Positions 34,818 to 58,096 are shown, counted from the stretch's first letter. The stretch is DNA of 64,000 nt from Mucilaginibacter sp. (GCF_039925265.1 NZ_JBDSZG010000024.1:15626-79625), one strand, 5' to 3'. The notes: generated from the sequence alone by a model not told the origin. Numbers and translations are program-made.

Positions 34818-36491
34818 TTGAAACAAATTTTAAAAAGCATCTTCCTTATCCTCACTCCGCAGGAAAAAAACAAGCTGTTTAAGCTCATCGCTTTTGATGT
34901 GCTGATAGCTTTGCTGGATATTGCTTTCCTGGCGTCTTTGTTGGTTGTTATCAATTTTTATACGCAGGTATCCGGTGCAAACAAGCTTGCCTTTTTACCA
35001 CAATGGCTGGCCGATAACAAGTCGCTCAAATTGATCGGTTTGTTTTTGTTGCTGTTTGCCTGCAAGAATGCTTTAGGATTTTTTGGGCAAAGGTCGCAGC
35101 ATCATTTTTTCTACCGGGTGGCGTCGCGGTTGTCGGCACGGAATATTGGTAATTATTTACGCGGTGGGTATCAGCAGTTTGTGCATACCAATTCATCGGT
35201 ACACACCCGCCGTATCAGCAATCAGCCTATCGAGTTTAGTCACTACATTTTAACCAACTTTCAGCAGCTTGTATCGCAAACCTTGCTGATAATTTTTACC
35301 GTTGTTGCCATCCTGTTTTATCACCCTTCGCTATTTTTGATCATGCTTCTGTTGTTGCTGCCCCCGGTTGTGCTATTGGGGCTGTACACTCGTAAACGGC
35401 AGGCGGCGTTAAGGCATCAAACTAAAACAGCCAGCGCGAAAACCATCCAGCATCTGAACGAATCATTGTCCGGCTATGTGGAAAGCAACATGTATGATAA
35501 GGATGATTTTTTTAGCGACAGGTATTTAAACTACCAGCAGCAACTGAATAATACCATCGCCGCGCAACAAACCTGGCAAAGCCTGCCCGGCCGTTTAATG
35601 GAAGTTTTTGCGGTACTGGGCTTTTTAATATTGGTGGGCATTAGCAAGTACATCACCAACGCACCGGGCATTGGCATGTTAACCATTGGCATATTTATGG
35701 CCGCGGCTTACAAAGTAATACCGGGCATTGTTAAAATAATGAACAGCACCGGGCAAATGAAAACCTATGCCTTTATCCTGGAAGACCTGGTTGCCGATAA
35801 CGAAGTAAAACGTGCCGGGCCGGGCGAAAAAGTAAATACTATCCGGCAGGTTAAATTTGAAGGAATTAGTTTCGGTTACCAATCCCGACCGGTGTTGGAT
35901 GACCTGAACTTTGAAATAGCCCAGGGCGATATGATGGGTATCTCCGCAGATTCCGGCAAAGGCAAAACCACTATCATTAACTTATTGCTGGGATTTTTAA
36001 AATATGATAGCGGCTCTATTCACATAAATAATCGCGTTGCCGATACCGAAAGCTTTAATGCTTACCGTAAAAATATCTCTCTTGTAAAGCAGCAGCCCTT
36101 TCTTATTCACGATTCTATCCAAAATAATATTACGCTGAGCGATGATATTGCCGACCAGGCCCGGCTTGCGTATGCTGTGGAGTTTTGCGGATTGGATGAG
36201 TTTGTGGAAAAATACCCGGAAGGGTTCGATCATTTGATAACCGAGAACGGTAAGAACATCAGCGGGGGACAAAGGCAACGGCTGATGCTGGCAAGGGCGC
36301 TGTACCATGATTTTGACCTGCTGATACTGGATGAACCTTTTAGCGAAATGGACAGTAAGGGGGAGCAGGAAATCCTCGCGAAGCTAAACCAACTGGCCAA
36401 ACAGGGTAAAATGATCATCCTGATAACACATAATAAAGCAAGCCTTGCTTTTTGCAATAAAATAATTTTATTAGAGGGGGCATATGCCTGA
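34818..36491 (+). CDS. ABC exporter, fused permease/ATPase (MsbA/PglK/HepA-like)
   Basis: TM N-half, Walker A ADSGKGKT, ISGGQRQR, LILDEP, ITH; no C39 peptidase domain. Start placed at TTG 34818 because ATG 34761 lies upstream of the promoter motif. Confidence 0.88.
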   Translation: MKQILKSIFLILTPQEKNKLFKLIAFDVLIALLDIAFLASLLVVINFYTQVSGANKLAFLPQWLADNKSLKLIGLFLLLFACKNALGFFGQRSQHHFFYRVASRLSARNIGNYLRGGYQQFVHTNSSVHTRRISNQPIEFSHYILTNFQQLVSQTLLIIFTVVAILFYHPSLFLIMLLLLLPPVVLLGLYTRKRQAALRHQTKTASAKTIQHLNESLSGYVESNMYDKDDFFSDRYLNYQQQLNNTIAAQQTWQSLPGRLMEVFAVLGFLILVGISKYITNAPGIGMLTIGIFMAAAYKVIPGIVKIMNSTGQMKTYAFILEDLVADNEVKRAGPGEKVNTIRQVKFEGISFGYQSRPVLDDLNFEIAQGDMMGISADSGKGKTTIINLLLGFLKYDSGSIHINNRVADTESFNAYRKNISLVKQQPFLIHDSIQNNITLSDDIADQARLAYAVEFCGLDEFVEKYPEGFDHLITENGKNISGGQRQRLMLARALYHDFDLLILDEPFSEMDSKGEQEILAKLNQLAKQGKMIILITHNKASLAFCNKIILLEGAYA

Positions 36492-37539
36492 AACGCTGAT
36501 CATCCTCACGCCCGGTTTCCCTGCGGATGAAGCAGATACCACCTGCATTCCGCCACAGCAGGTTTTTGTTAAAGCACTAAAGGATAACTACCCTAAGCTG
36601 CGGATCATTATCCTGAGTTTTCAATATCCCTTCCAGGAGAAGGAATACCTATGGCATGGGATAAAGGTAATTGCCTTTGGCGGGCAAGGCAAAGGAGGGG
36701 CCAATAGAATGGTGACCTGGTTTAAAGTGTGGCAATGTTTACGGGCGATAAAGGAACGGCATAAACCCATCGGCATACTTAGTTTTTGGCTGGGCGAAGT
36801 TGCTTTTGTGGGTAGCCTTTTTGCGAAATGGAACAAGCTGAAGCATTATAGCTGGCTGCTTGGCCAGGACGCGAAAGCCGGTAACAAATACGCGCGCCGG
36901 ATAAAGCCCCAAAGCCCCGGCCTCATCGCCATTTCAGATTTTATTGTAACCCAGTACCAGCAAAATTATGGTATAAAGCCCGGGCAGGTGATCCCGGTGG
37001 GCGTTTCCCCGCAACCTTTTAAAAATGTTGGCGATGCGAGGGATATCGGCCTCCTGGCGGCCGGGTCGTTAATCCCTTTAAAGCGGTACCATTTGTTTGT
37101 GGAGTTGGTAAAAGAATTAAAAAAAGACCACCCCAATATCCGTGCTGTTCTTTGCGGCGCCGGCCCCGAAATGGAACGCCTGCGCGCTTTGGTAGCAGAA
37201 CTTGAATTGCAAGATAATTTAACAATAAAAGGAGAACTGCCTCATCAACAGGTGCTGGATCTGATGCAGCATGCAAAGGTGTTTGTGCACCCATCCGAAT
37301 ACGAAGGTTTCAGCACCGTTTGCCTGGAAGCGCTTGATGCAGGCGCCGGGGTGGTTAGCTTCATCAAAGCAATGAATGCGGATATCCCAAACTGGCACAT
37401 CGCCAACACACCTGAAGAAATGCACCGGATTGTTGGAGAATTGCTGAATGATGATACACGAAAGTACCAGCCAGCAGTGCCCTATTCTGTCAATGAAAGC
37501 GCAAAAACGATGATGGCTTTGTTTAATTACAGCGAATGA
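36484..37539 (+). CDS. Glycosyltransferase, GT4/GT-B
   Basis: GSLIPLKR, GELPH, HPSEYEGFSTVCLEAL. Confidence 0.88.
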   Translation: MPETLIILTPGFPADEADTTCIPPQQVFVKALKDNYPKLRIIILSFQYPFQEKEYLWHGIKVIAFGGQGKGGANRMVTWFKVWQCLRAIKERHKPIGILSFWLGEVAFVGSLFAKWNKLKHYSWLLGQDAKAGNKYARRIKPQSPGLIAISDFIVTQYQQNYGIKPGQVIPVGVSPQPFKNVGDARDIGLLAAGSLIPLKRYHLFVELVKELKKDHPNIRAVLCGAGPEMERLRALVAELELQDNLTIKGELPHQQVLDLMQHAKVFVHPSEYEGFSTVCLEALDAGAGVVSFIKAMNADIPNWHIANTPEEMHRIVGELLNDDTRKYQPAVPYSVNESAKTMMALFNYSE

Positions 37540-38630
37540 GCTATCTGCTCTATTTGCCGGGCGATGGCTTCGAAAGAGAGCGTTGTTTTAAAATACTCCA
37601 GCGAGCGTTTTCGTTTATCCCAAAGATCTATTTGCCTGGTTTTATTCAGGGCTTCCAGTAAAGCCTCCTCACTGCCGGGTGTGTAAAGAATGCCGCAATC
37701 GCCGTTATTGGTGATCATCCTGAACGAAAGTATATCTGTAACAACCGGCACGCACCCGCATGACATAGCCTCGCAAACCGAGGCCCCGCTTCCCTCATAA
37801 TGCGAACCGGAAATAATAAAATCGGCACTGTTAAACCAATATAAAAGTTCGTGATGAGGGACCTTGCCAACCAATACTACCGTACGTGAAAGCTGGGGGC
37901 TGCTTGACAGCAGCGCCTGAATAGTGTGCAGTAATTCATCGGTATGGTAGATCATGTAGAGCTTTGCGTTTGGCTCCTGGTGGGTAAATTTTAAAAATGC
38001 CTTAACCACATTCACAGGGTCTTTATTGGCGTTTAAACGGCCCACCCACAAAAATACAGGGTTACCCGTTATACCGGTTTTAAGTTTGGCTACCTCCCCG
38101 TTTACCGGGTAAAATACCGAAGATACCTCCATCGCCTCATGGATCTTAGCTGCTGAGGCTAAATTCCCGACAGCTACCCATTCTACTCCCATGGCATATG
38201 ACGCAAATACATAAGCATCAATATAGTTATCGGCTAAGCGCTGGAGCTGTTTTTTTAAGCCGGTTGCGGGTCGCTCAGCGTGGTTTTGCACCATTATTTT
38301 TACCCGCTTACCCAGTACAAGACGCAGCAACATCACCTGTAAGGGGAAATGAAGGCTTTGAATAACCACTACATCGGGCTGCAGGCTTTTAATAAACTGG
38401 TTTAACTTGCGGGGATAGTACCGCAAAGCGGCTGCCGGGTATCGTTTAAAGTGGTAGTCGACCCCGCCGCTAAAATGCCGGCCCTCATAATCTATTTGTT
38501 CTATACTGACTACTTCGTTGGTACGACTAAGCGCTCCCTGTATGCCGGCGTAGGCATTGATGCGTTTTAGCCAGGCATCGGGCTCGTGAAAGTTAGGGGT
38601 ATAAACGTAGCTTGCAAAAACAAATCTCAT
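37527..38630 (-). CDS. Glycosyltransferase, GT4/GT-B
   Basis: VGRLNANK, GKVPH, SHYEGSGASVCEAMSCG. Confidence 0.9.
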   Translation of the reverse strand: MRFVFASYVYTPNFHEPDAWLKRINAYAGIQGALSRTNEVVSIEQIDYEGRHFSGGVDYHFKRYPAAALRYYPRKLNQFIKSLQPDVVVIQSLHFPLQVMLLRLVLGKRVKIMVQNHAERPATGLKKQLQRLADNYIDAYVFASYAMGVEWVAVGNLASAAKIHEAMEVSSVFYPVNGEVAKLKTGITGNPVFLWVGRLNANKDPVNVVKAFLKFTHQEPNAKLYMIYHTDELLHTIQALLSSSPQLSRTVVLVGKVPHHELLYWFNSADFIISGSHYEGSGASVCEAMSCGCVPVVTDILSFRMITNNGDCGILYTPGSEEALLEALNKTRQIDLWDKRKRSLEYFKTTLSFEAIARQIEQIAHSL

Positions 38631-38642
38631 GAAGAGGGCGCG

Positions 38643-39611
38643 TTAAAAAATATCAATATCGGCAAAGGTAAAAGCGAGTTTATCTGCAGGGATGCCCGAG
38701 CCCATATCCTTAATGGCGATGGTAAAAGAGGGAATTGGCTGAGCATATTTTTGCAACATGGCGTGTAAGCGGCTTTTTGCACACACCTGGAACTGTAATT
38801 GCTGCAGCCCAAGGCGTTTGGTTAATTTAAGTAATTTTGCCACTACTTCATCCATATTGTCGCCAAGGCCGGTTATGTCGCCAACTATCAGTCCGTTTTT
38901 TATTTTGAACCATACCCGTGCTTGTCCAATTTGCACGGTGTGGGTGTAGGCATAACCTTTATAGGTTAAAAATTCTTCGTCACGATAAACCCCGCCATAA
39001 CCCTCGCCCAGTACAGAATTACTGATGCCCGAGGGTTGCTTTTCGGCTTTAATTACGAGGTTTAAATAAGCATCGTAAAGCGGTTTCGCCACATTGAATT
39101 TCGTGGCGAACTTTTCTAAAGGGATCGCCTTAACCGGGATAGTGAAACGCTCGAGACAACCCACCGCTTCCCAGCCAAGCTTGTTGATAAAGCCGGGCAA
39201 TGAGTTTTGATTAGGAAAGCCGAATATCAACCGGATACCTTCTGCACGACACAGGCTATAAGTTTGGTTAGCAAGCGCGACAAACAGTCCCTTATTGCGG
39301 TGCTCGGGGTGTGTCATGGTATCGGCAGATTGCCCGGCCAGCGTTAAGCGCCCACCATGATCCACAAAGCAGGGGAGTACCCCATAAAATGCTACAGGCA
39401 GGTCGGTTTGATCATAAGCAAGGTAGCCTACATAGGTTACTACCGTAAAGGCAGTGTTATATTTTTTCAGTAAGAAATCGCGGTTCAGCAGCTTATCGTA
39501 AACTGCCATGTGCAGGTAAACCAGGTCATTTAGTTTATCCACGCTAAACCGCTCTACACGGTAGCCACCCGCTATGGTTTTACCCTCAGTATGTGCCTCT
39601 AACGTTTGCAT
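38643..39611 (-). CDS. GNAT-family N-acyltransferase
   Basis: DTMTHPEHRNKGLF acyl-CoA-binding motif, FGFPNQNS...LGW. Confidence 0.82.
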   Translation of the reverse strand: MQTLEAHTEGKTIAGGYRVERFSVDKLNDLVYLHMAVYDKLLNRDFLLKKYNTAFTVVTYVGYLAYDQTDLPVAFYGVLPCFVDHGGRLTLAGQSADTMTHPEHRNKGLFVALANQTYSLCRAEGIRLIFGFPNQNSLPGFINKLGWEAVGCLERFTIPVKAIPLEKFATKFNVAKPLYDAYLNLVIKAEKQPSGISNSVLGEGYGGVYRDEEFLTYKGYAYTHTVQIGQARVWFKIKNGLIVGDITGLGDNMDEVVAKLLKLTKRLGLQQLQFQVCAKSRLHAMLQKYAQPIPSFTIAIKDMGSGIPADKLAFTFADIDIF

Positions 39612-40587
39612 ACATTTGGTTTGTGGTTGATATAAAAGGATTTATGGTGAGGCGTTCGCGCATCGCAGGCTCTGCTCCGTCCTCGGCATGATGATAATCG
39701 GTAGCTAACAATTGTGTATACCCACAGGCTTTAGCCGCGTTAACTACAGCCTGGTTATAACTGCCGTAGGGGAAGGCAATACTGTTCACGGCCTTGCCCG
39801 TTACACTTTCCAGGTATTGTTTGCTTTGTGCAAGCTCTTTTGCAGCTTCAGCAGCGGTTATTCCCGCGAGGTCGTTATGGTAATACCCATGCGAGCCAAT
39901 GGTTACATAAGGCGAGGCCGCCATTTGTTTAATTTGATCGGCAGTCATTTGCAACCAATAATCCTGGTGCTCCTTGTTTTTGCGGAAGGGACACAATTTA
40001 TCCAGCAGGCGCATTAGTTCCGCCTTATCGGAAAAGCCGAATCGTCGTAGTTTTACATTCAGGCTTATGCCTTCGGCATCAACGTAATGGCGATAGGTGT
40101 TTTTGTGATACGATCGATCTTTAAAAGTTAAAACCGCCGGGCCATATTTGCCCGCAATGCTCAGCATATCGTTCCATAAAATATCGTAGCCGGCGGCACT
40201 GGCGGCCGTCACAAAAAAAGTTGCAGGTACCCGGTATTTATGGAGCAGGGGTAGCGCGTAGGCGTAGTTATTTGCAAACCCGTCGTCAAAAGTGAGGCAG
40301 ATATTGAATTTTTCTTCAGAAAAACGCTGTAAGTAAAAGTCGTCCATCGAAACTAAATTGAAGTATCTTTTGTAATAACTAAGATGTCGCTCAAAAGTTT
40401 GCAGGGTAATAAAAAGGGTATTGAACTTGGTGGGGGCGTTTTGGCAGATCCCATGATAGGCTAATATGCGGCTACCCCGGGCACTTTTGTAATAGTTTTT
40501 ATCCACCCCCATAATATGAGAGATGTCGCCTTGTATGTAGCGTGCCCTGCGGCTGGTTTTGGTAATTATTTTCTCTAATACGCTCAT
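39586..40587 (-). CDS. Polysaccharide deacetylase (CE4/NodB-like)
   Basis: LTFDDG, ATFFV, IGSHGYYH, AFPYG. Confidence 0.88.
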   Translation of the reverse strand: MSVLEKIITKTSRRARYIQGDISHIMGVDKNYYKSARGSRILAYHGICQNAPTKFNTLFITLQTFERHLSYYKRYFNLVSMDDFYLQRFSEEKFNICLTFDDGFANNYAYALPLLHKYRVPATFFVTAASAAGYDILWNDMLSIAGKYGPAVLTFKDRSYHKNTYRHYVDAEGISLNVKLRRFGFSDKAELMRLLDKLCPFRKNKEHQDYWLQMTADQIKQMAASPYVTIGSHGYYHNDLAGITAAEAAKELAQSKQYLESVTGKAVNSIAFPYGSYNQAVVNAAKACGYTQLLATDYHHAEDGAEPAMRERLTINPFISTTNQMYANVRGTY

Positions 40588-40589
40588 AG

Positions 40590-41750
40590 TTAGGCGGCAG
40601 GTTCTGAGGGTATATAAACAGGAAACTGTATATCAGCCTGATACTGCTGTATCTGGTTCATCAGCTCAGGTAGATCCCCCTGCACATATTTAACACTCTT
40701 CCCGCTATACACTTTACTGAATTGATATAGTGGCATATCGCCCAATTGGTGATACAAGCTTTGGTCGAAAAGCCGGATGTTTCCCTTGCTCATCACCATT
40801 AAAATATCTTCAGGTTTAATGCCATAAAAGGCATCTAAACCCTTGTTGCCGGTATCTTTAACCAGCAGCAGGTCGGCATCAAACCCTTCGGCAATGCTGC
40901 CACAGTTTAGCTTCCAAACATTGGCCGCGTCACTTGTAAGAGAACGGAACAGCTCCTCATCGCTCAGCATTTGCGTTTCGCGGGCGAGGGAAATATGCTC
41001 CCAGATGTTCCAGTCGCTGGTGAGGGTGGAATCTGTGCCGAATAAAATGCGGGTGAACTTTTTTAAGTGGTTAACCGGCGCGGTGGCATTCAGTAAAAAA
41101 TAGTTCGACTGCGGGCACCACACCAGCGCCTTAAAATATCTCGCCTGCGCGGGGCTAAGCGCTACCCCATGAATGCCTATGAGTTTGCGATGCAATAAAT
41201 TCCAGCGGATAAGTTCGTCAATTTCGCTGTGTGCGGCGGGGTTGGTACCCTCGCCAACATGCATTACAACAGGTTGGTTTATCTTTAATGGGTTGTTCAG
41301 CCGTTTTTTCCATTGCTTTTCAAAAGCTACCGAATGCAGGTCCTGCTTGTTTTCTACCAGGCTGATCAGGGCATCATTCGGCCCATTCCGTTCGCCATGG
41401 TTTACTACTGTGGTAACGCCGCAAAGCAGGTTTTTATAAATGCCCCATTGCTCGCGCAGCGCAAGGGGGATCTTTAGCCCCGCGGCAATTTCATCCGCAT
41501 AGGTTTTATGGATATGTTCCCCCCATTCGGTATAGCTTTTATAAGTAAGGTTGCCTAATTGGGGGAAGAGATTAAAATCGAGATGGTCGTGCGAATTGAT
41601 CAGCCCGGGGAAGGCCCAGGCGTTGGAAAACATCACTTCGGATTGCCCCTTTTCTATCAGAGGCACAGTTGATAGCCGGGCAATTTTGCCTTCGCTTATG
41701 CGGATACTTACGTTTGTACCGTTAATGAGCTGCACATTATTTAGTATCAT
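40590..41750 (-). CDS. Metal-dependent amidohydrolase (nucleoside deaminase-like)
   Basis: PGLINSHDH (HxH), MHVGEG, IHGV, FGTDS, GSIAEGFDAD; start at ATG 41750. Confidence 0.85.
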   Translation of the reverse strand: MILNNVQLINGTNVSIRISEGKIARLSTVPLIEKGQSEVMFSNAWAFPGLINSHDHLDFNLFPQLGNLTYKSYTEWGEHIHKTYADEIAAGLKIPLALREQWGIYKNLLCGVTTVVNHGERNGPNDALISLVENKQDLHSVAFEKQWKKRLNNPLKINQPVVMHVGEGTNPAAHSEIDELIRWNLLHRKLIGIHGVALSPAQARYFKALVWCPQSNYFLLNATAPVNHLKKFTRILFGTDSTLTSDWNIWEHISLARETQMLSDEELFRSLTSDAANVWKLNCGSIAEGFDADLLLVKDTGNKGLDAFYGIKPEDILMVMSKGNIRLFDQSLYHQLGDMPLYQFSKVYSGKSVKYVQGDLPELMNQIQQYQADIQFPVYIPSEPAA

Positions 41751-42489: not shown

Positions 42490-42521
42490 GGGCGATGAGA
42501 TTTAAAACCTGGTTAATAAGA

Positions 42522-42549
42522 ATTACGGTTACCTGCCTGCAAAGGTTGC
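42522..42549 (-). promoter_or_regulatory. Putative ECF sigma promoter (site 2)
   Basis: Minus strand GCAACC-16 nt-CGTAAT, facing GTG 42489. Confidence 0.75.
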
Positions 42550-42575
42550 CAGCGCTGTTTTATTTATGTGCCGAG

Positions 42576-42603: not shown

Positions 42604-42659
42604 TATAAATGTGCGGGATGATAAGTGCCGACAGATTAAAGTTTTTGTGATATGGGCAG

Positions 42660-42710
42660 CTCCCGGTTTAAACGAGGTGAGGGTAAAACCTCATCACCGG
42701 GAGATTTTTT
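42660..42710 (+). terminator. Terminator/attenuator-like hairpin in the radical SAM operon leader
   Basis: CTCCCGGT...GGTGAGG-GTAAAA-CCTCATC-ACCGGGAG followed by ATTTTTT. Confidence 0.5.
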
Positions 42711-42741
42711 GATAGCGATAAATAAAGCCGGGCAACCCCTA

Positions 42742-44244: not shown

Positions 44245-44256
44245 TTTTTTTTGAAC

Positions 44257-49348: not shown

Positions 49349-49357
49349 TTGTTTAAA

Positions 49358-51719: not shown

Positions 51720-52795
51720 GCTGAGTATGCTAATTGATATGCTTTATATGTTTGTATGGCTGCCTGCTGCCAGGTAAACTGCTTTACTATTTTGCGGCGA
51801 AGGCCCTTGTTAAAATCTGCCTCGCTTGCTTTTTCAACCGCGGCCAGGATGCTTTTTGGCTGACCTGGGTCGCAATAAAAGGCGTCATCTGTAAAATATT
51901 CGCGGGTATCGCCTTTGTCAGTTATCACAATGTTGCAGCCCATGGCCGCCGCTTCTATCGAGCTTAGTCCAGTGGTTTCGAACCAGCTGGGCAGGATATG
52001 CACCTTTGCTGCCGAATAATATTTAACAAGCTCCTGCTGCGGGATGTGGCTAATAAAGCGGATATTATCTGCGGCTATAGCCCGGCACCGGTTATAATAG
52101 GCCAGCTGGTTTGGCGCGTGCGATCCAATCAGCATCAGCGTAAAACCGGTATTATTTAATGCTTTGATAAGGTTGAGCTGGTTTTTAATGCCCTCTATCC
52201 GCGCCACGCAAAGCACCAGGTTTTTGTTCCTGCTCAATTCCGTGTCGCAGGTAAAAAGCTTTGGATCGATGCCGTTTGTAACCACGCTAAATTTTGTGCT
52301 GCAAGTATATTGCTTAATAATACGTTGGTACTCCGACAACGAGTTAGGCAGTATCAGCGCTGCCTGGCGCAGTACTTTTTGGATGCTCTTGCGTTGCCCC
52401 ATCCACAGGTAGGCTTTGGCGGAAAGATGGTCTTTCCCCAATAACCAGCGGGCAATGGTTTTGATATAATCGATACCGTTTGCCGGCAGAAAAGCCATCA
52501 GCGCTCTTAACCCTTTGGCTTGTTGCTTATCGTATTCGCTGTAGTTGCACAGGATGGTTGATACCACGAAAGGTTTGTTGGCCTTTTGGCTGTGGTACAG
52601 GATATCCGCCGGGCGGGTAAGATTAAAGAAATGCAGCAGATCGAAATCCTCGTAACTGATCTCCTCGTTAGATAATTTTATGGACACATCCACGCCTATC
52701 TCCGCCAAATGGCGGGCTGTTTGCACCGCCTGTACCGTGTCCCCGCCGGGAACGGTGTATAAAGTAGACCGTGTGATAAATGCCACTCTCATCAT
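51716..52795 (-). CDS. Glycosyltransferase, GT4
   Basis: GGDTVQ, VARIEGIKNQ, PSWFETTGLSSIEAAAMG. Confidence 0.9.
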   Translation of the reverse strand: MMRVAFITRSTLYTVPGGDTVQAVQTARHLAEIGVDVSIKLSNEEISYEDFDLLHFFNLTRPADILYHSQKANKPFVVSTILCNYSEYDKQQAKGLRALMAFLPANGIDYIKTIARWLLGKDHLSAKAYLWMGQRKSIQKVLRQAALILPNSLSEYQRIIKQYTCSTKFSVVTNGIDPKLFTCDTELSRNKNLVLCVARIEGIKNQLNLIKALNNTGFTLMLIGSHAPNQLAYYNRCRAIAADNIRFISHIPQQELVKYYSAAKVHILPSWFETTGLSSIEAAAMGCNIVITDKGDTREYFTDDAFYCDPGQPKSILAAVEKASEADFNKGLRRKIVKQFTWQQAAIQTYKAYQLAYSA

Positions 52796-53742
52796 TTCGC
52801 CAGGTTTAGGTGCAGCCAGTTTATCAATCGCTCGGGGAGATAACTCACCGTGTAAAGCAGGTAATTATCCAAGCGCAATGGCTGTAGCGCAATGGCCTTA
52901 ACCATATGGCGCCGTGCACGCTGCGGTTGGTAATTGTTCAGCAAAAACTTTTTACCGCACAGGGCATAATAGGCCCCCTGCTTGTTTTTGGGCGAGTATT
53001 GCGTGCTGCCTATCTCGTGTAATTCTTTCCCTTCGGATGCCGTAATGCGCTGGGTTTTGAGTGAAGTATGCTTTATCAACCGGAATTTGCGCGTATGCCA
53101 TTTTTCATCAATGGTAACCGATTCGGGGTTGAGCCGCACCTTTATCAGCGACTGTGGCAGGTTGCAGGCCTTTTCTGTTTTAAGCAGGTTGGCCCATAAA
53201 AAATGATCCTCAAAGGTATAAGCATGCTCATTGTATCCTCCGGCATTTATGATAACGTCTTTTTTGTAAAGTACGCAGGAGTGGATCATGGGACAAACGC
53301 GCACATCCAGCTTTTTAATTTCATCATAGCTGTAACCCGCCAATTGGTGCTTGAATAGAAATTCACCTTCGGTATTAATATAATCCGCTTCGGAGCCAAT
53401 GATGCTGTATTCGGGATGCGTGCAGATAAAATCGTATTGCGTCTGCAGTCGGGTGGGGTAGCAAATATCATCGGCATCGAAACGGGCGATGTATGGCGCA
53501 CGGGCATATTTTAACCCGGTATTGAGGGCCGCCGCTACGCCTTTGTTAGCCTGGTGGATTACCACGATGCGGGCATCGTTGAACGAACTGATGACATCCA
53601 GCGTATCATCTTTAGAGCCGTCGTTAACGATCATCAACTCAAAATCATCGAAGGTTTGCGCCAGTACCGAACTGATGGCCTCGCGGATATATTTACCGGC
53701 ATCATAAGCCGGCATTAATACGGTGATCTTTGGCTCATGCAT
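52792..53742 (-). CDS. Glycosyltransferase, GT2
   Basis: VLMPAYD, VNDGSKD, ARFDADD, EDHFLW; start at ATG 53742. Confidence 0.9.
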   Translation of the reverse strand: MHEPKITVLMPAYDAGKYIREAISSVLAQTFDDFELMIVNDGSKDDTLDVISSFNDARIVVIHQANKGVAAALNTGLKYARAPYIARFDADDICYPTRLQTQYDFICTHPEYSIIGSEADYINTEGEFLFKHQLAGYSYDEIKKLDVRVCPMIHSCVLYKKDVIINAGGYNEHAYTFEDHFLWANLLKTEKACNLPQSLIKVRLNPESVTIDEKWHTRKFRLIKHTSLKTQRITASEGKELHEIGSTQYSPKNKQGAYYALCGKKFLLNNYQPQRARRHMVKAIALQPLRLDNYLLYTVSYLPERLINWLHLNLAK

Positions 53743-55390
53743 GGCTAAGCCCTCCTTCCCGCGCTTCGGTCTCTTTAATGTTGAGGAACAACAACAGCTC
53801 GAAAAACACCAGGATGGATAATTGCTCAAACCAGTAATCCACAAAAAGCACCGCCATCAGCAACAACAAAATGGGCAGCCCGTAAGTAAGTTTGTGGTAG
53901 TGCCAGGCAAAAAACCACAGGTAATAAACAAAGAAGATAACTAAGCCAATGAGGCCGTATTCGGCTAATAGCTGGTCGTAAACCGAAAAAGGGCTGTTGG
54001 TTAAGGAATGCAGCCCGGTTTGCTTGCTAAAAAAATCGAGGTACACATCCAGGTGGTTCGTTAAAAAATCGGGATTTATGTAGATGTATCGGTGCGGATA
54101 TCCGCCTGCTATGCCCAGCCCCGTTGCCCGGAATGCCAGTTTGGATGAGAAGTTACCCATGCCATCGCCGGTAAGTACTTTGGCAGGGTGCTGCATCAAA
54201 AATTTACCCGTTTGTAAAACGCTGATGGCTTTACCCGGCAAGGCAGGTACCCGGATGGTTCTGGCAGAAATGGGCAGCGCCGTATCGTGCGTGTTGATAA
54301 ACCTGATGAGCGGTTGCTGGGCCGCCTGTGGTACTTTTATGCTTTGGTAGGTTGCCGAGTGGATGTTGGCCTGCGGCATTAAGATGCGCCCATCATCGTT
54401 ACGGATAACCTCTTTTTTTACAACGGGCAACTTGCCTTTGGTGTCTTTTAAATATTCGGCGCTGCTTAGGCTATCCAGGTACAGTTTCGCGAATTTCTCC
54501 TTCCGTTCTTCGGGGTTTAGGGTAGAGTCGGGGCGTTCGCTTATGGGTAGTAAGGCTGCCTGCGTAACAGCATGGCGTGCCGGTTTTTCAAAAGTGTTCT
54601 TGATGGTCTCGGCTACATAAATATTGTTTTGCGGTGATACCTTCACCATAAAAGTAACCAGAAACATAAGGCAGATAACCACCAGACTTTTTTGCGCGCG
54701 GGTACTTCTGAAAATAAACAGCAGGCCAAGGATGAGCAGTAAAACAATATTGATAAAGTTGCTCCCGGTTAAAAGCAAGGTGGACATACTGGCCATTAGC
54801 ATCAGTGGTTTTTGGCGTGCCAAAAAATAAATAACGCCCATGGCATTAATAGCGGCATTGGTGGTGCTGGTGTCGAAGGTTACGCCCTTGATATAGTCGC
54901 CCGTGCCGATGAAGTATTTTTGATAATTGCCCTGGTAAGTATAGGGGTTGAGGGCATGCGTTTCGATGATGATGCGGAGCAGGTTGATGGCCGATACGCC
55001 TGCGTTGATGGCAAAAAATACGAGGAGCGTGTTGTGCAGTACTTCCACGCTTTGCTTTTCTACCGAGAGTTTTACCTGATGAATGGCCAGTATGCACAAC
55101 AGCCAAAAAAACAGCCCCGTGGCAAAAACGATGAGGTAATTGATGTTTTGAAAACCTTTGCCAATAAACAAGCCTACAAACGACAGCGGAATAATGAGCA
55201 GGTAAAATAATGGCAGCCGCGAATTTTTAAGGCTGAAGCCAAACTTAAAATCGAATTGTAGCAGGTAGATCAGCGCTAAGGCGGGGATCTTTATCGCCAA
55301 CTTTACATTTAAAAACAGCAGGAGTAAGGCAAGCAGTTTCCAGTCTGCATAACTCTTCCATTTTTTAATGTCGATAGGGCTTATGGCCAT
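53735..55390 (-). CDS. Wzy/WaaL-like polytopic membrane protein with a large soluble insertion
   Basis: Many TM segments; GDGMGNF and QLLAEYGLIG resemble Wzy_C motifs; hydrophilic stretch of roughly 150 aa precedes them. Confidence 0.55.
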   Translation of the reverse strand: MAISPIDIKKWKSYADWKLLALLLLFLNVKLAIKIPALALIYLLQFDFKFGFSLKNSRLPLFYLLIIPLSFVGLFIGKGFQNINYLIVFATGLFFWLLCILAIHQVKLSVEKQSVEVLHNTLLVFFAINAGVSAINLLRIIIETHALNPYTYQGNYQKYFIGTGDYIKGVTFDTSTTNAAINAMGVIYFLARQKPLMLMASMSTLLLTGSNFINIVLLLILGLLFIFRSTRAQKSLVVICLMFLVTFMVKVSPQNNIYVAETIKNTFEKPARHAVTQAALLPISERPDSTLNPEERKEKFAKLYLDSLSSAEYLKDTKGKLPVVKKEVIRNDDGRILMPQANIHSATYQSIKVPQAAQQPLIRFINTHDTALPISARTIRVPALPGKAISVLQTGKFLMQHPAKVLTGDGMGNFSSKLAFRATGLGIAGGYPHRYIYINPDFLTNHLDVYLDFFSKQTGLHSLTNSPFSVYDQLLAEYGLIGLVIFFVYYLWFFAWHYHKLTYGLPILLLLMAVLFVDYWFEQLSILVFFELLLFLNIKETEAREGGLSHA

Positions 55391-55484
55391 TGCGTCTTTA
55401 TAGTTTTAGCTGAATTGGGGAGCAAGCGGCAACAGCCGCCTATCCGGGGAGAATTGCTTCTGCCCGGGTTAATTCTCTAAAAAC

Positions 55485-55512
55485 ATTACGCTTTGGAATT
55501 TGGAATGGTTGC
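55485..55512 (-). promoter_or_regulatory. Putative ECF sigma promoter (site 5)
   Basis: Minus strand GCAACC-16 nt-CGTAAT, facing ATG 55390. Confidence 0.75.
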
Positions 55513-55662
55513 CTGTGGATGGCGGCCGTGGAGGATATTTAATATGAGGACGGGATGAATTTTTGCATGAAGTTTGTGTTGTTTGCGAAAAGCAATTGTT
55601 TGGCCTCGGTTAATTATCTTTACGGTAAAGCAATAGCCCTATGATTAGATAGCCCTCATAAA

Positions 55663-55799
55663 ACGTTCCTATGGAACGTGAAAATGTTTTTACTTATTTC
55701 TACCCATAAGTCGTTCCGACGGAACGTTTTCTTTTCAGCCCTTAGGGCTGTTTTATGGGTAGAAAACCCCAACAATTTTTCTACGTTCCATCGGAACGT
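55663..55799. repeat. REP/REPIN-like palindrome cluster
   Basis: ACGTTCC-TAT-GGAACGT (55663), CGTTCC-GAC-GGAACG (55712), CAGCCC-TTA-GGGCTG (55736), ACGTTCC-ATC-GGAACGT (55783); TTCTACCCATAA/TTATGGGTAGAA arms at 55698 and 55753. Confidence 0.8.
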
Positions 55800-55868
55800 C
55801 TGATGAAACGGAGCCTATCCAAGTCCAATACGCGATTACCTTGGCCAATGCTCATACCAAATAAGAAT

Positions 55869-57293
55869 TTATCCCGAAAATGCTGCCGCTGCAGTTTTCC
55901 TATCGCTAAGCCTTAGTTGTTTGCTTAGGTAAAGTAGCACGATATACAGGAAGGTTCCCAGCAGCAATGCCAGCCAGCAATTAACCGCACATGATTTCAT
56001 GGCTACGCCGCTTGCCAGGGCGCAAGCCGTGCACAGCGCCAGGTTTTGCCAAATGGCATTTAATTGCTTAATACGGTTATGGCTCAAATAAAACACTGCC
56101 TGCACCACATAAGATGCCAGGAAGCCTGTGGCCGCACCCTCATTGCCAAAGTAGGGTATCAGCACCACATCCAGCCCGGCGTTTACCAAAAAGGTAATGA
56201 TGAAACCTTTCAATATCATCTTCATTTCGCCTTTGGCAAAAAAGATGGTCCACAAAAAATTATTAAGGTACAGGAAAGGGATGCAAAGCGATAGGATAAA
56301 AACAGTGCCGGCATTAACAGCGCCGTATTTGCCCGCAGTAATAGCATCCATTACCGGCGACCAGAGGATGTTGAGCGCCAGCCCGGTAAAAGCGGCAATG
56401 GCCATTTCGGCGCGTAAAAGGTTTTGAAGGCCAGCGATATCGGCGGTGCCTTGCTTAAACATTTTTGTAAATTTAGGTATCAGCAGCGGCGCAATGGCCA
56501 GCAGTGGCAGGGTACTCATTTCAAAAACCTTATAAGCAAAACTGTATTCGGCCAGTTTAACTGCCGATGCCATAAAACCGATAAATACCCAGTCGAACCG
56601 GGCTATGGCCGAGGTGAGGATGTTAACCCCCGTTTGCGGCAGTGCCTCGCGGAGCAGGGCGGTATATTTAGCCCGGTGCCATAAGATATTAAACAAAATT
56701 TTTGTGCCACGACTGAAAATGATCGCGGTGATCAGTAGCTCCAGCACATCTCCGGCTACAAAAATTATAACGGCATTTTGTAATGAAATGGCGTGTATAA
56801 TAGCCAGCATCAGCAAAGCCACGCTACGTATTAGGTTTGATACTATTAGCATAGTACCCAGCAGGCGGAAGCGTTCCAGCCCGCTGGCAGCCTGTTTAAA
56901 GGGGGTGGAAAAGTAGATCATCAGCTTGCCCGCGCCAACAAGTAAAAGCAAGGGATAAACGCCATTGGTTTGGCTGATGAATAAGCTGCCCAGCAATATC
57001 AACCCATAAAATAAAAAGCCGGTGAGCAGTACATGGAACAGGTAAAGCGAGAGCACTTCCCCTGCGTCTTCGCCCGAAGCTATTTTGCGGATGGATACCT
57101 GGTCGATACCCAGCGAGAGCAGGTTAAAGGCCATCATCAGGATAGCCAGCGCGAGGTTCAGCTGCCCGAAACTGTTTTTATCGAGCCCGGTAGAGAGCAG
57201 GTAAAAAATAACCAGTCCGGCCAGTTGATTAATAACCAGCTGCAGGGTATTTGCCGAAAGATTTTGAAATAGTTTGCTTTTCAAAACGATCAA
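55869..57293 (-). CDS. Wzx/MOP-family oligosaccharide flippase
   Basis: About 12-14 TM segments, SFGQLNLA, RFDWVFIG...AEYSFAYK, YFGNEGAA. Confidence 0.85.
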   Translation of the reverse strand: MIVLKSKLFQNLSANTLQLVINQLAGLVIFYLLSTGLDKNSFGQLNLALAILMMAFNLLSLGIDQVSIRKIASGEDAGEVLSLYLFHVLLTGFLFYGLILLGSLFISQTNGVYPLLLLVGAGKLMIYFSTPFKQAASGLERFRLLGTMLIVSNLIRSVALLMLAIIHAISLQNAVIIFVAGDVLELLITAIIFSRGTKILFNILWHRAKYTALLREALPQTGVNILTSAIARFDWVFIGFMASAVKLAEYSFAYKVFEMSTLPLLAIAPLLIPKFTKMFKQGTADIAGLQNLLRAEMAIAAFTGLALNILWSPVMDAITAGKYGAVNAGTVFILSLCIPFLYLNNFLWTIFFAKGEMKMILKGFIITFLVNAGLDVVLIPYFGNEGAATGFLASYVVQAVFYLSHNRIKQLNAIWQNLALCTACALASGVAMKSCAVNCWLALLLGTFLYIVLLYLSKQLRLSDRKTAAAAFSG

Positions 57294-58096
57294 TATTCAA
57301 CCACCAGTTTTTTGGGTGCCGGTAACTTACCCGAAGGTAGGTATTTGCCTGCTTCAAAAAGTTTTAAGTAATGATATTTAAGCCGGGTGTTTTTGTAAAG
57401 CATCAGCGCGATATCCAACCCTTCCAGTCCATCTAAAAAGCCTAACCGGATAAGGTAGCTGATGAGAAAGCAAAATACAGGCGAAAGGTAGAGCTTAAAA
57501 AAAGCGGCCTTTTTGCCGGCGCTTAAGTATTTGATGGCGCTTAGTCGAGCGTAATGAATCGCTTTTTTATCGCACTCTTTTATATTTTGTACCGAGTAAT
57601 GGTGCAGGTAGCCGCCTACCCTTTTTACAGTAGCGCCGGGCGGAAGCAGTAAAGTTTCGTGCACCTCCGTTTCCGACCATTTTACCCGTGTGCGGTTAAA
57701 AAGGCGGCGGTGGTGATCTCGGCCCCAGGTGCCGTATTTAATTAGCTTATCCCCAAAGTAAGATCGGAATTGGATATCGTACACCACATCAGGGTTATCA
57801 AATGTTAGGCAGTGCAGAGTGTTGATGAGCTGCACATCGGCTATCTCATCAGCATCGATGCTTAAGATCCAGTCGTGCCGGGCCAGCGCTATCCCCTTGT
57901 TTTTATTCGCGCCGTAGCCATCCCAGCTTTTGTGGTAAACGCGGCAGCCGTAAGCTTCGGCAATTTTCAGGGTATCATCGGTGCTGCCATTGTCTACCAC
58001 TACGATATCATCGCTGATAAAGCTTGCCATTTTAAGGCATCTGCCCAATATGGCCGCTTCGTTTTTGGTAATAATTACGATGGAAACCGGTATCAT
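57290..58096 (-). CDS. Glycosyltransferase, GT2 (WaaE/KdtX-like)
   Basis: VIITKNE, VDNGSTD, LSIDADE, VHE, LHHYS, GFLDGLEG. Confidence 0.88.
   Translation of the reverse strand: MIPVSIVIITKNEAAILGRCLKMASFISDDIVVVDNGSTDDTLKIAEAYGCRVYHKSWDGYGANKNKGIALARHDWILSIDADEIADVQLINTLHCLTFDNPDVVYDIQFRSYFGDKLIKYGTWGRDHHRRLFNRTRVKWSETEVHETLLLPPGATVKRVGGYLHHYSVQNIKECDKKAIHYARLSAIKYLSAGKKAAFFKLYLSPVFCFLISYLIRLGFLDGLEGLDIALMLYKNTRLKYHYLKLFEAGKYLPSGKLPAPKKLVVEY

Follow-up and report, generated by a model that had tools for sequence, protein, structure and literature searches.

A putative lipid-linked glycan assembly locus with three radical SAM enzymes in a soil Mucilaginibacter

The pgl pathways of Campylobacter and Neisseria comprise a small phosphoglycosyltransferase (PglC), GT4 glycosyltransferases (PglA, PglJ and PglH), the GT2 enzyme PglI, a flippase that is either the ABC protein PglK or the Wzx-type PglF, and a transferase, PglB or PglL. 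The Arn and Gtr systems carry out periplasmic glycosylation via polyprenyl-phosphate monosaccharides, and ArnD is a deformylase that acts on a lipid-linked sugar. Class B radical SAM enzymes, whose reactions also include ring contraction and cyclisation, count among them the lipid methylases HpnP and HpnR and the hopanoid head-group enzyme HpnJ, the last a member of the HpnI/HpnK/HpnJ trio in which a radical SAM protein is associated with a glycosyltransferase and a deacetylase. The locus described here, 20 genes from a soil Mucilaginibacter (34761-58096, about 23 kb, by ORF listing and Pfam scans) within an analysed window of 64,000 nucleotides, resembles each of these systems in part. A reading made earlier from the sequence only had recognised no characterised pathway with this combination of genes, and that stands: none of the 20 genes scores high enough to pass the equivalog cut-off of a named NCBIfam family, and targeted literature searches brought up no published account of such a pathway. 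The family matches of the key enzymes lie far below the curated cut-offs, and therefore no reaction is assigned to any of them.

Glycan assembly and export genes

All 20 genes (G1 to G20) of the sequence-only reading are present in the ORF listing, and 19 of its 20 domain calls were reproduced with Pfam, including the ABC protein, Wzx, amidohydrolase, CE4, GNAT and nucleotidyltransferase-like proteins and the counts of two B12 radical SAM enzymes, one SPASM protein, three methyltransferases and six glycosyltransferases. Matches to the locus sequence came solely from DNA runs of one rhizosphere metagenome.

The locus opens with G1 (34761-36491, + strand; start corrected from 34818), an ABC half-transporter with transmembrane and nucleotide-binding domains (Pfam ABC_membrane and ABC_tran) that aligns end to end with both PglK and MsbA (205 and 214 bits in NCBIfam, both far under cut-off). 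It carries no peptidase domain by Pfam, and is a candidate flippase or exporter of a lipid-linked product. Pfam places G2 (36484-37539, +; Glycos_transf_1), G3 (37527-38630, -) and G16 (51716-52795, -) among the GT4 enzymes, and G17 (52792-53715, -; Glycos_transf_2, E 1e-33; 307 aa by the gene caller) and G20 (57290-58096, -; with a C-terminal hydrophobic segment) among the GT2 enzymes. G3 and G16 weakly match NCBIfam models for MGlcDAG synthase, GlcN-PG synthase and the LTA-anchor enzyme IagA/BgsA, as well as the glyco_rSAM_CFB GT4 family TIGR04157 of a Bacteroidales peptide-modification system, where they score 35-37 bits and the cut-off is 400. The sixth glycosyltransferase, G15 (50586-51719, -), is a GT4 enzyme with a DUF1972 domain in Pfam and a median identity of 80% across related loci; it matches the NCBIfam Cps2T model over its full length (E 1e-65; 222 bits, under the cut-off of 500) and appears to be a Cps2T/WchF-like second-step enzyme acting on an Und-PP-sugar.

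Two Wzy/WaaL-like proteins had been claimed. One of them, G14 (49358-50626, -), is upheld by Pfam (Wzy_C, E 5e-18) as a membrane protein of the ligase/O-oligosaccharyltransferase/polymerase type; it carries the motif AHNQF...TGIIG and matches PDB entries 9rmk ('oligosaccharyltransferase', E 2.4e-5) and 7tpg (WaaL, E 0.098). The other, G18 (53735-55390, -; 551 aa), is a polytopic membrane protein that is possibly a divergent Wzy_C-like one, and here the claim is weaker: G18 has no match of its own in Pfam, NCBIfam or PADLOC and no relation to G14 by hhalign, and its single-sequence AlphaFold model (pLDDT 40) is unusable. Its topology, in which a loop of about 215 aa separates about eight N-terminal hydrophobic segments from two to three C-terminal ones, would suit such a protein; it carries a Wzy_C-like motif, FSVYDQLLAEYGLIG, and two of four members of its family weakly match Wzy_C (E 0.011). 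G19 (55869-57293, -; Polysacc_synt, E 5e-20) is a Wzx-type flippase, which accompanies the cluster in two further loci (L063 and L168). Divergent from G20 is a gene for an ECF sigma factor (58372-59013, +; Pfam Sigma70_r2/r4_2/ECF), next to one for a putative anti-sigma factor, a membrane protein of 425 aa with one transmembrane segment (59010-60287, +); the pairing of G20 with the sigma and anti-sigma genes is preserved in three other loci (L022, L024 and L168).

Absences in the window were as previously claimed. Among 50 ORFs scanned with Pfam outside the locus (4/50 without a match, a few ORFs of 100-200 aa being left out) there is no phosphoglycosyltransferase, Wza/Wzc, nucleotide-sugar enzyme, PKS/NRPS or peptidase, and the window contains no chain-length regulator or outer-membrane export gene by Pfam and no lipid-synthesis gene. 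No convincing small precursor ORF (at least 40 aa) lies in the gaps at 55.4-55.9 kb and 58.1-58.4 kb, the two that the listing covered, all others being at most about 300 bp each; nor does PADLOC find a defence system.

A conserved module of radical SAM enzymes

G8, G10 and G11 all contain CxxxCxxC. G8 (42742-44244, +) has the architecture of a class B radical SAM enzyme, with a Radical_SAM domain (cluster motif CPFTCSFC) and a B12-binding domain at 37.4 bits against the Pfam cut-off of 32.1. Its start is most likely at 42742 (M31 of the ORF) because homologues are 500 aa long, and its best NCBIfam match is HpnJ, at 127 bits where 578 would be required. In G11 (46055-47518, +), also of class B type, Radical_SAM scores 78.9 bits and the B12-binding domain 30.8, just under the same Pfam cut-off. 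Its closest solved relatives are AprD4 (E 3e-22), a diol dehydratase that binds no B12, and QCMT (9ccb, E 6e-20), a B12-dependent methylase, and binding of cobalamin by G11 is uncertain. Of the earlier proposal of cobalamin-dependent C-methylation, cobalamin use is predicted for G8 and putative for G11, and C-methylation is putative for both, class B enzymes catalysing ring contraction and cyclisation as well. G10 (45000-46046, +; Pfam Radical_SAM and SPASM) combines the motif CNCRCVMC with five C-terminal cysteines and a SPASM/twitch-like C-terminal domain, and matches SkfB and BlsE in the PDB (E about 1e-8).

Three class I SAM methyltransferases accompany these enzymes in Pfam: G7 (41737-42489, -; Methyltransf_11/23/25), the accessory G9 (44251-45003, +) and the core G12 (47515-48336, +; Methyltransf_25). 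G13 (48338-49210, -), likewise core, is a nucleotidyltransferase-like protein with weak NTP_transf_2/Polbeta matches in Pfam and a GS..DxD motif in which S91, D102 and D104 are invariant; its AlphaFold model (pLDDT 70), whose best Foldseek matches are ANT(4')/KNTase, MNT and AadA (E about 0.03), supports a pol-beta-type nucleotidyltransferase fold. G6 (40590-41750, -; Amidohydro_1) is a metallohydrolase of the amidohydrolase superfamily with an N-terminal HxH motif. It resembles COG0402-type nucleoside/base deaminases, with aminofutalosine deaminase, chlorohydrolase and guanine deaminase families as best NCBIfam matches, all below cut-off, and TM0936 as best PDB match (E 1e-4); there is no resemblance to sugar N-deacetylases. 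A GNAT acyltransferase (G4, 38643-39611, -; Acetyltransf_9, E 1e-9) and a CE4 polysaccharide deacetylase (G5, 39586-40587, -; Polysacc_deac_1, E 3e-30) are accessory.

Gene set and order are shared by 58 full-length loci of the Sphingobacteriaceae type, a set picked by similarity to G8. G6, G8, G10, G11 and G12 occur in 58/58, G1, G2 and G7 in 56, G3 in 54, G4 and G9 in 35, and G5 in 33. With dozens of genomes sharing this arrangement, a chance assembly can be dismissed; the locus is one conserved unit, kept across the genus. The full layout from G1 to G20 with the ECF gene is also found on a metagenome contig with a 67% identical G13. G8 is the most conserved gene, with a median identity of 86% across 55 loci against 45 to 80% for the others, a figure inflated by the choice of those loci on G8 itself.

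Beyond Mucilaginibacter the cluster was recovered from one Pedobacter, one Dyadobacter and Flavobacterium-type loci, a part of the phylum only. Flavobacterium-type loci keep together a core of G13, a G11 orthologue (about 50% identity), G12, an extra B12 radical SAM protein, a G8 orthologue (60%) and a methyltransferase, with G13 immediately upstream of the G11 orthologue and G12 after it, and exchange the glycosyltransferase and export set around this core. One gene set has an ABC protein, two GT4 enzymes and a SPASM protein; a second has a GT2, a GT87 (GT-C) and other membrane proteins; a third has CE4, GNAT-like, FkbM methyltransferase, GT4 and PMT_2 genes with sulfotransferase or SGNH genes. 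Variant A consists of an ABC protein, two GT4 enzymes and radical SAM proteins and nothing else, and G2 is also found there. A Wzy_C gene is often absent from Flavobacterium-type clusters; in the smallest locus (L158) an upstream protein carries a Wzy_C-type motif, HSEYLMYLAEMGIIG, read by eye. In Dyadobacter frigoris and three further loci (L074, L076 and L047) a Bac_transf primer heads the cluster, directly upstream of a G2-like or G1-like gene. The radical SAM block is thus tied to glycosyltransferase genes in 58/58 loci, and the Flavobacterium-type core also sits among glycan genes; homologue searches neither placed these genes in a known pathway nor separated the block from glycosyltransferases in any full-length locus. 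Beyond Bacteroidota, the genes closest to G8 (about 40% identity) come from Anaerolineae and stand alone, with no conserved glycan context around them, and therefore the G8 fold as such is not glycan-specific.

A proposed assembly line and its alternatives

We propose, with a probability of roughly 0.55, that these genes form a complete assembly line, running from cytoplasm to periplasm, whose product is a short, heavily tailored heteroglycan built on undecaprenyl diphosphate. The carrier, the order of steps, everything that the radical SAM module does chemically and the acceptor are as we infer them. A small phosphoglycosyltransferase, encoded elsewhere in this genome and within the cluster in some relatives, would prime the carrier; G15 would add the second sugar and the remaining GT4 and GT2 enzymes would lengthen the chain. 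In the cytoplasm at least one sugar, on the intermediate or on a nucleotide-sugar precursor, would be remodelled by radical chemistry and methylation through G8, G11, G12 and G13, joined in Sphingobacteriaceae by G10, G7 and G6. The radical reaction could be C-methylation, deoxygenation or rearrangement, with G13 possibly activating a hydroxyl or phosphate and G6 possibly removing the by-products 5'-deoxyadenosine and S-adenosylhomocysteine. Where present, CE4 and GNAT may exchange N-acyl groups. The product would be flipped by the PglK/MsbA-like ABC protein and/or Wzx, and G14 (perhaps also G18) would either polymerise it or transfer it en bloc to a periplasmic acceptor, be it LPS core, a different lipid or protein; expression may be controlled by the neighbouring sigma/anti-sigma pair.

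The sequence-only reading had instead taken the locus to decorate an existing glycan with, among others, re-acylated sugars. The Bac_transf primer in four related genomes and the Cps2T-like G15 speak against this and make it likelier that a glycan is assembled de novo on a lipid carrier, so that the genes most likely build their own Und-PP-linked oligosaccharide; re-acylation, for which GNAT and CE4 are at hand, is at most an optional decoration since both are accessory. The missing chain-length regulator and outer-membrane export genes fit a short glycan moved en bloc. Several points count against the Und-PP proposal: primer and nucleotide-sugar genes are missing from the window, so that carrier and sugars are not read from it; GT4 enzymes and MsbA-like exporters also serve undecaprenyl-free glycolipids; and the stand-alone Anaerolineae relatives of G8 speak against a glycan-specific G8 fold.

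The alternative that survives best, itself unlikely, is protein O-glycosylation, in which a PglL-like G14 would move the flipped oligosaccharide onto periplasmic or outer-membrane proteins. For G14 9rmk outranks WaaL, and the small phosphoglycosyltransferase of relatives, the GT4 enzymes, the PglI-like GT2 and the PglK-like ABC protein are Pgl-like parts. Moreover, the OTase, ligase and core-glycan flippase of Bacteroidota O-glycosylation are still undiscovered according to a 2025 review, and Bacteroidota O-glycans are commonly methylated (PMC12871550); the G14 locus could supply the missing components, or be a lineage-specific second system. However, Wzy_C does not separate ligase, OTase and polymerase, the PDB E-values are weak, the Wzy_C gene is often missing from Flavobacterium-type clusters, and the cluster occupies part of a phylum in which the general system is phylum-wide. 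LFG loci are marked by metG and a FucT gene (see PMC8698959); no metG was found among the scanned window ORFs, and none of the six glycosyltransferases has a fucosyltransferase-family match.

A membrane glycolipid or small glycosylated lipid is a doubtful second alternative: the GT4 enzymes would glycosylate a diacylglycerol-type or other lipid, the radical SAM enzymes and methyltransferases would act on that lipid or on its head group, and flipping of the product would fall to the MsbA-like ABC protein. The weak glycolipid-synthase matches of G3 and G16, the equal resemblance of G1 to MsbA and PglK, the existence of class B lipid enzymes (with HpnJ as the sub-threshold top match of G8) and the sparse Flavobacterium variant A are all consistent with this, but the Bac_transf primers, Cps2T-like G15, Wzx and Wzy_C, together with the GT-C enzymes of Flavobacterium variants, point to polyprenyl-phosphate carriers, and the window is devoid of lipid-synthesis genes. 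Finally, it is improbable that the radical SAM/methyltransferase/nucleotidyltransferase block merely lies beside the glycan genes and makes an unrelated cofactor, small metabolite or modified peptide, as G8-G12 (+ strand, a transcription unit of their own between oppositely oriented units), the Anaerolineae homologues and the TIGR04157 matches might suggest, given the glycan linkage in every full-length locus examined, across two Bacteroidota classes and despite turnover of glycosyltransferase and export genes, and the want of a convincing precursor in the two gaps, of a peptidase, of a peptidase domain on the ABC protein and of a PADLOC defence system.

Comparison with known systems

Flavobacterium-type variants, in which the radical SAM core is accompanied by a short GT2, GT-C enzymes (GT87, PMT_2) and multi-TM proteins, are similar to ArnC/ArnD/ArnT and GtrABC, and the CE4 enzyme recalls ArnD, but the window has GT4 enzymes, ABC, Wzx and Wzy_C in place of GT-C enzymes, and its genes matched no Arn or Gtr family model. 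With Wzx/Wzy O-antigen and capsule loci (such as pneumococcal cps, with Cps2T/WchF) the locus has in common Wzx, Wzy_C, a Cps2T-like GT4 and further glycosyltransferases; it differs in lacking a chain-length regulator, Wza/Wzc, an in-window primer and nucleotide-sugar genes, and in possessing an extra ABC exporter and a radical SAM module better conserved than most of its glycosyltransferases.

The pgl pathways are matched in the GT4 enzymes, the PglI-like GT2 and PglK-like ABC proteins (both end to end), Wzx, a Wzy_C-family transferase as in PglL systems, the small Bac_transf primer of related loci and the absence of Wzz/Wza/Wzc. Scores stay well under the equivalog cut-offs (PglK 205 against 1000, PglI 54 against 500, PglJ 29-41 against 500), the Mucilaginibacter locus is without bacillosamine genes and a protein acceptor is putative, and pgl systems are not known to carry radical SAM enzymes and methyltransferases, three of each, with a nucleotidyltransferase-like protein. 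G8 and G11 share the Rossmann B12-like domain and radical SAM core of class B tailoring enzymes (GenK, GenD1, MoeK5, Fom3; HpnJ, HpnP/R; AprD4) and, as in HpnI/HpnK/HpnJ, the genomic company of glycosyltransferases and a deacetylase; they differ in NCBIfam score (HpnJ 127-133 against 578, AprD4 88 against 500, KedN5 43-50 against 700) and in a context that is a Bacteroidota envelope-glycan locus, not an antibiotic or hopanoid cluster. The locus would accordingly join an otherwise ordinary lipid-linked sugar-chain assembly line to radical SAM enzymes and methyltransferases, three of each, an uncharacterised combination.

Layout and conservation of the locus

ORF listing together with Pfam scans resolved 20 genes (G1-G20) at 34761-58096, in four transcription units: G1-G2 (+), G3-G7 (-), G8-G12 (+) and G13-G20 (-). 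The first unit encodes an ABC half-transporter (G1) and G2, one of four GT4 glycosyltransferases along with G3, G15 and G16; the second adds a GNAT (G4), a CE4 deacetylase (G5), an amidohydrolase (G6) and the first of three class I methyltransferases (G7, G9 and G12). In the third unit G8 and G11 are radical SAM proteins with an N-terminal B12-binding-type domain, and G10 is a radical SAM protein with a SPASM-type C-terminus, while the fourth also includes an NTase-like protein (G13), a Wzy_C protein (G14), two GT2 glycosyltransferases (G17, G20), a 551-aa membrane protein without a family match (G18) and a Wzx flippase (G19). A CxxxCxxC motif is present in each of G8, G10 and G11, and the ORFs, Pfam domains and motifs together bear out the gene inventory of the earlier, sequence-only reading of this DNA. 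The gene caller gives 386 aa for G6 and 307 aa for G17. The longest ORF of G8 carries 30 surplus N-terminal codons (42652-42741) without counterpart in its homologues, almost all of them 495-507 aa long; given this 500-aa length, translation most likely begins with the ATG at 42742. A divergent G7/G8 promoter region of ~250 bp would then remain.

Homologues of G8 that are 82-98% identical occur in many Mucilaginibacter species, the nearest genomes being M. gilvus and M. pankratovii (G8 97-98% identical), and further homologues are found in Pedobacter sp. L105, Dyadobacter frigoris and a metagenome-assembled genome (MAG) labelled Runella. A search of sequencing runs placed the exact sequence in metagenome DNA runs from rhizosphere and lake; all matches were DNA runs, with no RNA run found to hold it. 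When the window proteins were compared by tblastn with 80 genome loci, gene order was identical throughout. Among the 58 loci spanning the full 21.5 kb, G6, G8, G10, G11 and G12 were present in all, G1, G2 and G7 in 56, G3 in 54, G13 and G14 in 50, G15 in 46, G17 in 42, G16 in 37, G4 and G9 in 35, and G5 in 33. Median identity was highest for G8 (86%), a rank to be read with the caution that the loci were picked by G8 similarity, followed by G15 (80%), G11 (75%), G10 (72%) and G12 (71%), with the rest at 45-66%. A contig found through a G13 homologue (67% identical) has the entire architecture, including anti-sigma and ECF genes divergent from G20, and in one rearranged locus (L063) G20 and G19 have shifted to the opposite end of the cluster and are still attached. 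The shared order, the complete contig and this attachment indicate that 34761-58096 delimits one conserved locus. The whole cluster is also present in D. frigoris (L018/L167), where it is flanked by SusC/SusD genes, and in the Runella-labelled MAG (L016); G8 is 89% identical to the window in both, inside the Mucilaginibacter range of variation, which suggests horizontal transfer between orders or, for the MAG, mis-binning.

Flanking genes are of a housekeeping kind and unrelated to the locus: alternative complex III and cytochrome oxidase genes, a DUF2461 protein and an OmpA-family protein upstream, and an ECF sigma factor, a single-pass membrane protein, YceI, a DUF5777 protein and a Rieske protein downstream. 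The respiratory genes form a complete block at 16034-32610 (multihaem cytochrome c, molybdopterin/Fe-S subunit, NrfD-like subunit, ActD and cytochrome c of alternative complex III, then cytochrome oxidase subunits II, I and III, CtaA, CtaB, SCO1 and DUF420) that looks ordinary for aerobic Bacteroidota. Also upstream, and with no relation to the locus, are a LytTR-type two-component pair of histidine kinase and response regulator (8750-10964) and a protein with a T6SS immunity Tdi1 C-terminal domain (12831-13445). The stretch 62368-63347 encodes a DUF2157 membrane protein and, after it, an ORF whose weak match to the STT3 N-terminal domain is sub-threshold (E 1.4e-4; 21.9 bits, cut-off 24.5) and probably reflects just a similar series of transmembrane segments. 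Pfam scans covering 50 of the ORFs outside the locus, four of them without any match, detected no priming phosphoglycosyltransferase, Wza, Wzc, Wzz, nucleotide-sugar enzyme, PKS/NRPS or peptidase, in agreement with the absences listed from the sequence alone. Scans for tRNAs and Rfam families, cobalamin riboswitches included, were negative across the window.

The ECF sigma factor and its 425-aa single-pass membrane protein (58372-60287) adjoin G20 divergently and are kept in three related loci (L022, L024 and L168), and the pair keeps its place beside G20 even in loci whose remaining genes have been reshuffled; we regard it as a candidate for a dedicated regulator. Within the G19/G18 gap (55391-55868) lies a ~150-nt inverted-repeat element (55656-55806) with three copies of the palindrome CGTTCC-N3-GGAACG, against 0.09 expected; the palindrome occurs nowhere else in the window and in none of 165 retrieved loci. 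In L168 this gap is only about 100 bp, and the element accordingly looks like a MITE/REP-like insertion or an operator array before G18-G13.

The radical SAM core and associated enzymes

Both G8 (CPFTCSFC) and G11 (CPFKCNWC) exceed the Pfam cut-off for the radical SAM domain. The call of two B12-binding radical SAM proteins stands for G8, whose B12-binding domain scores 37.4 bits (cut-off 32.1), and is less secure for G11, which at 30.8 bits falls below that cut-off and whose nearest solved structures include AprD4, an enzyme that has a B12-binding-type domain yet is cobalamin-free (PMC12931638). The other near structure is QCMT (9ccb; PMC12931638); AprD4 is a diol dehydratase acting on an aminoglycoside sugar and QCMT a B12-dependent methylase. 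G10 scores above cut-off for Radical_SAM (51 bits) and SPASM (45 bits), and its Cys-rich C-terminal domain (Cx17C at C276 and C294, then CxxCxC at 332-337) supports the SPASM/twitch assignment made earlier, with five cysteines against seven in the full SPASM motif. Its nearest solved structures are SkfB and BlsE, the latter a radical SAM enzyme that decarboxylates a sugar acid. No NCBIfam family is reached by G8, G10 or G11, and a place among the characterised sugar C-methylases of the GenK, GenD1 and MoeK5 type is not supported: the best scores, to HpnJ, BchE and PhpK, are 97-138 bits against cut-offs of 481-600, and the KedN5 model gives 43-50 bits against 700. For G8 the closest models are of the HpnJ type (127 bits, cut-off 578). 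The radical chemistry of the locus could be C-methylation, deoxygenation, decarboxylation or rearrangement, with cobalamin-dependent C-methylation a reasonable guess.

The three methyltransferases (41737-42489, 44251-45003 and 47515-48336) give sub-threshold matches of 63, 40 and 42 bits to CpaM, the 'corrinoid protein-associated methyltransferase' of NCBIfam (cut-off 180). These may reflect the generic class I fold only; they nevertheless raise the question of whether some methyltransferase of the locus services the radical SAM cobalamin rather than the glycan.

G13 contains the NTase motif G[SG]...[DE]x[DE] as GSLSKNFADERSDID, in which S91, D102 and D104 are invariant across 42 homologues. 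With an AlphaFold model (pLDDT 70) as the Foldseek query, the best matches are aminoglycoside nucleotidyltransferases (ANT(4'), AadA) and MNT, all weak (E ~0.03). In loci of the Flavobacterium type described below, G13 lies immediately upstream of the G11 orthologue in the same direction, which argues that it belongs to the same module; we infer that it may activate a hydroxyl or a phosphate by nucleotidylylation.

G6 is invariant in Sphingobacteriaceae-type loci and absent from the Flavobacterium type. To read it as a deacetylase would need correction: its best PDB match is TM0936 (E 1e-4), its sub-threshold NCBIfam matches are deaminase and chlorohydrolase families, and with its N-terminal HxH motif the sequence resembles COG0402 deaminases. 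TM0936 is a deaminase acting on S-adenosylhomocysteine and methylthioadenosine, and enzymes related to it act likewise on 5'-deoxyadenosine. On this basis G6 might clear inhibitory by-products of the three radical SAM enzymes and three methyltransferases, a role that we weakly favor over sugar de-N-acetylation. The CE4 and GNAT genes come and go together, as would suit lineages that exchange the N-acyl group of an amino sugar.

Exchangeable machinery around a constant core

An exhaustive search of 1.8 billion representative proteins showed G8 to be a tight family. Its own 50% cluster is represented by a Flavobacterium protein at 60% identity; the next relatives, 38-42% identical, are from Anaerolineae, Myxococcota and Elusimicrobia. 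The closest of these outside Bacteroidota (~42%; Anaerolineae contigs L082-L085) are 70-92% conserved within Anaerolineae and share no neighborhood, and in two Anaerolineae genomes the G8 relative stands alone without conserved neighbors. We also considered GT87 as a universal partner of the family and dropped it: a GT87 gene lies near one Anaerolineae locus, and the neighbor at the second locus is unrelated.

A second form of the cluster was recovered in a sample of 80 Flavobacterium-type metagenome loci. Its core begins with homologues of G13, G11 (~50% identical) and G12 and an extra B12 radical SAM gene, continues with a variable middle section, and closes with a G8 homologue (~60%) and an MTS-type methyltransferase. 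In variant A the middle section consists of an ABC exporter, two GT4s and a SPASM radical SAM, joined in some cases by a fourth B12 radical SAM; in variant B of a short GT2, a GT87 (GT-C), two more polytopic membrane proteins and a CxxCH lipoprotein; and in variant C of a CE4, a GNAT-like protein, an FkbM methyltransferase, a GT4 and a PMT_2 GT-C, accompanied at times by a sulfotransferase or SGNH hydrolase. In L158, the smallest locus, reading by eye shows a Wzy_C-type motif in an upstream protein and a Wzz-like character in a short one. The radical SAM/methyltransferase/NTase core is thus the constant part, and the surrounding glycosyl-transfer and export machinery is exchangeable and always of a glycan-handling kind. 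The proposed linkage between radical SAM and glycosyltransferase genes, which an unlinked radical SAM block elsewhere would have contradicted, is instead borne out, with the core staying among glycan-handling genes. This tailoring core is common to Sphingobacteriia and Flavobacteriia, and its carriers include named isolates with sequenced genomes (Mucilaginibacter gilvus, Pedobacter sp. L105, Flavobacterium soli and Flavobacterium sp. CF136 among them), so that the question is experimentally approachable, given genetic tools.

The sequence-only reading had the locus decorating an existing glycan. Pfam scans and tblastn detected no initiating phosphoglycosyltransferase in the window, and the priming transferase of this genome would be encoded outside the locus. 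Related loci carry one in the cluster: D. frigoris has a 236-aa Bac_transf phosphoglycosyltransferase at the G1 position, directly upstream of a G2-type GT4, and in L074, L076 and L047 the gene immediately upstream of G1 is a homologue of it. G15 aligns over its full length with the model for the beta-1,4-rhamnosyltransferase Cps2T (E 1e-65, 222 bits, below the cut-off of 500), and Cps2T adds the second sugar onto an undecaprenyl diphosphate-linked monosaccharide. G19 is a Wzx flippase (Polysacc_synt 72.6 bits, cut-off 28.2), and residues 23-572 of the ABC half-transporter G1 align with PglK 1-556 (205 bits, cut-off 1000), the MsbA model scoring 214 bits. Taken together, the primers of four relatives, the Cps2T-like G15, Wzx, Wzy_C and the PglK/MsbA-like transporter point to de novo assembly on undecaprenyl diphosphate, which would fit better than decoration of an existing glycan. 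The best PDB matches of G14 are 9rmk, annotated as an oligosaccharyltransferase (E 2.4e-5), and the O-antigen ligase WaaL (7tpg, E 0.098). Wzz, Wzc and Wza domains are absent by Pfam from all scanned ORFs of the window; with neither a chain-length regulator nor a gene for export across the outer membrane, the locus seems likelier to transfer a short glycan en bloc than to export a capsule or EPS. G18 was considered as a Wzy_C/GT-C relative and rejected, as hhalign comparisons with the G14 family and the Flavobacterium GT87, F11, PMT_2 and F3 families gave at most 2% probability; a profile search of the PDB had no match, a single-sequence AlphaFold model reached a pLDDT of 40, and what is left is a weak Wzy_C signal in two of four homologues.

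Interpretation and comparison with known systems

Our main reading, to which we give a probability of roughly 0.55, is that the locus assembles a short, heavily tailored glycan on undecaprenyl diphosphate, the tailoring being done by a conserved radical SAM/methyltransferase/NTase core. It is tempting, with the odds clearly against so specific a statement, to go further: the module of G13, G11, G12 and G8 would make an undescribed C-methylated, deoxygenated or ring-rearranged sugar on a polyprenyl- or nucleotide-linked intermediate, bringing class B radical SAM chemistry for the first time into the primary biosynthesis of an envelope glycan in free-living Bacteroidota, with delivery by interchangeable systems (ABC, GT4 and Wzy_C in Sphingobacteriaceae; GT2 and GT-C in Flavobacterium).

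We consider a protein O-glycosylation system an unlikely explanation. A 2025 review (PMC12871550) describes the oligosaccharyltransferase, ligase and core-glycan flippase of Bacteroidota protein O-glycosylation as still unknown and the O-glycans as often methylated, which keeps this explanation open. Against identity with the general O-glycosylation system (LFG), the cluster was recovered from part of the phylum only, and the window lacks the LFG-locus markers: these are metG and a conserved fucosyltransferase beside a Wzx/GT set (see also PMC8698959), and no tRNA-synthetase or fucosyltransferase family is present among the scanned window ORFs. A RiPP cluster can be set aside, since the two gaps searched for small ORFs (55.4-55.9 kb and 58.1-58.4 kb, other gaps being at most ~300 bp long) held no convincing candidate and no peptidase occurs in the locus or as a domain of G1. 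Anti-phage defence of the viperin or CBASS-like NTase kind can likewise be dismissed: PADLOC returned generic radical SAM-core matches only (G10 to pVip, 44-48 bits) and nothing for G13, G4, G6 or G18.

Sugar tailoring by radical SAM enzymes is known chiefly from antibiotic pathways. Here such a module lies within an envelope-glycan locus found genus-wide in Bacteroidota that are abundant in soil and the rhizosphere, its key enzyme among the best-conserved genes of the locus. If the assembly and tailoring model is true, both the modified sugar and the class B radical SAM reactions, acting on a natural lipid-linked substrate, would be new, and building the cell surface would include a B12-dependent step through which surface structure comes to depend on the cobalamin available in soil communities. 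It would also supply candidate genes for the still-unassigned flippase and transferase functions of Bacteroidota glycosylation; in the boldest version of the more specific reading above, the Wzy_C and ABC genes would be lineage-specific instances of the missing O-glycan transferase, ligase and flippase.

None of the 20 proteins matches a curated NCBIfam family at or above its cut-off, and literature searches on radical SAM/B12 enzymes and bacterial surface glycans turned up no description of such a cluster. The initial impression that no characterised pathway has this combination therefore holds, there being no curated family, defence model or paper found for the locus. Set beside the Wzx/Wzy-dependent pathway, it has Wzx (G19) and Wzy_C (G14) without Wzz, Wzc, Wza or an in-window primer. 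In architecture the locus comes closest to lipid-linked oligosaccharide pathways of the pgl or O-antigen type. All equivalog comparisons stay below their cut-offs, and a radical SAM module such as the one found here is not known from those systems. The locus is thus new in its uncharacterised radical SAM/methyltransferase/NTase core, set within a kind of lipid-linked glycan assembly that is already known.
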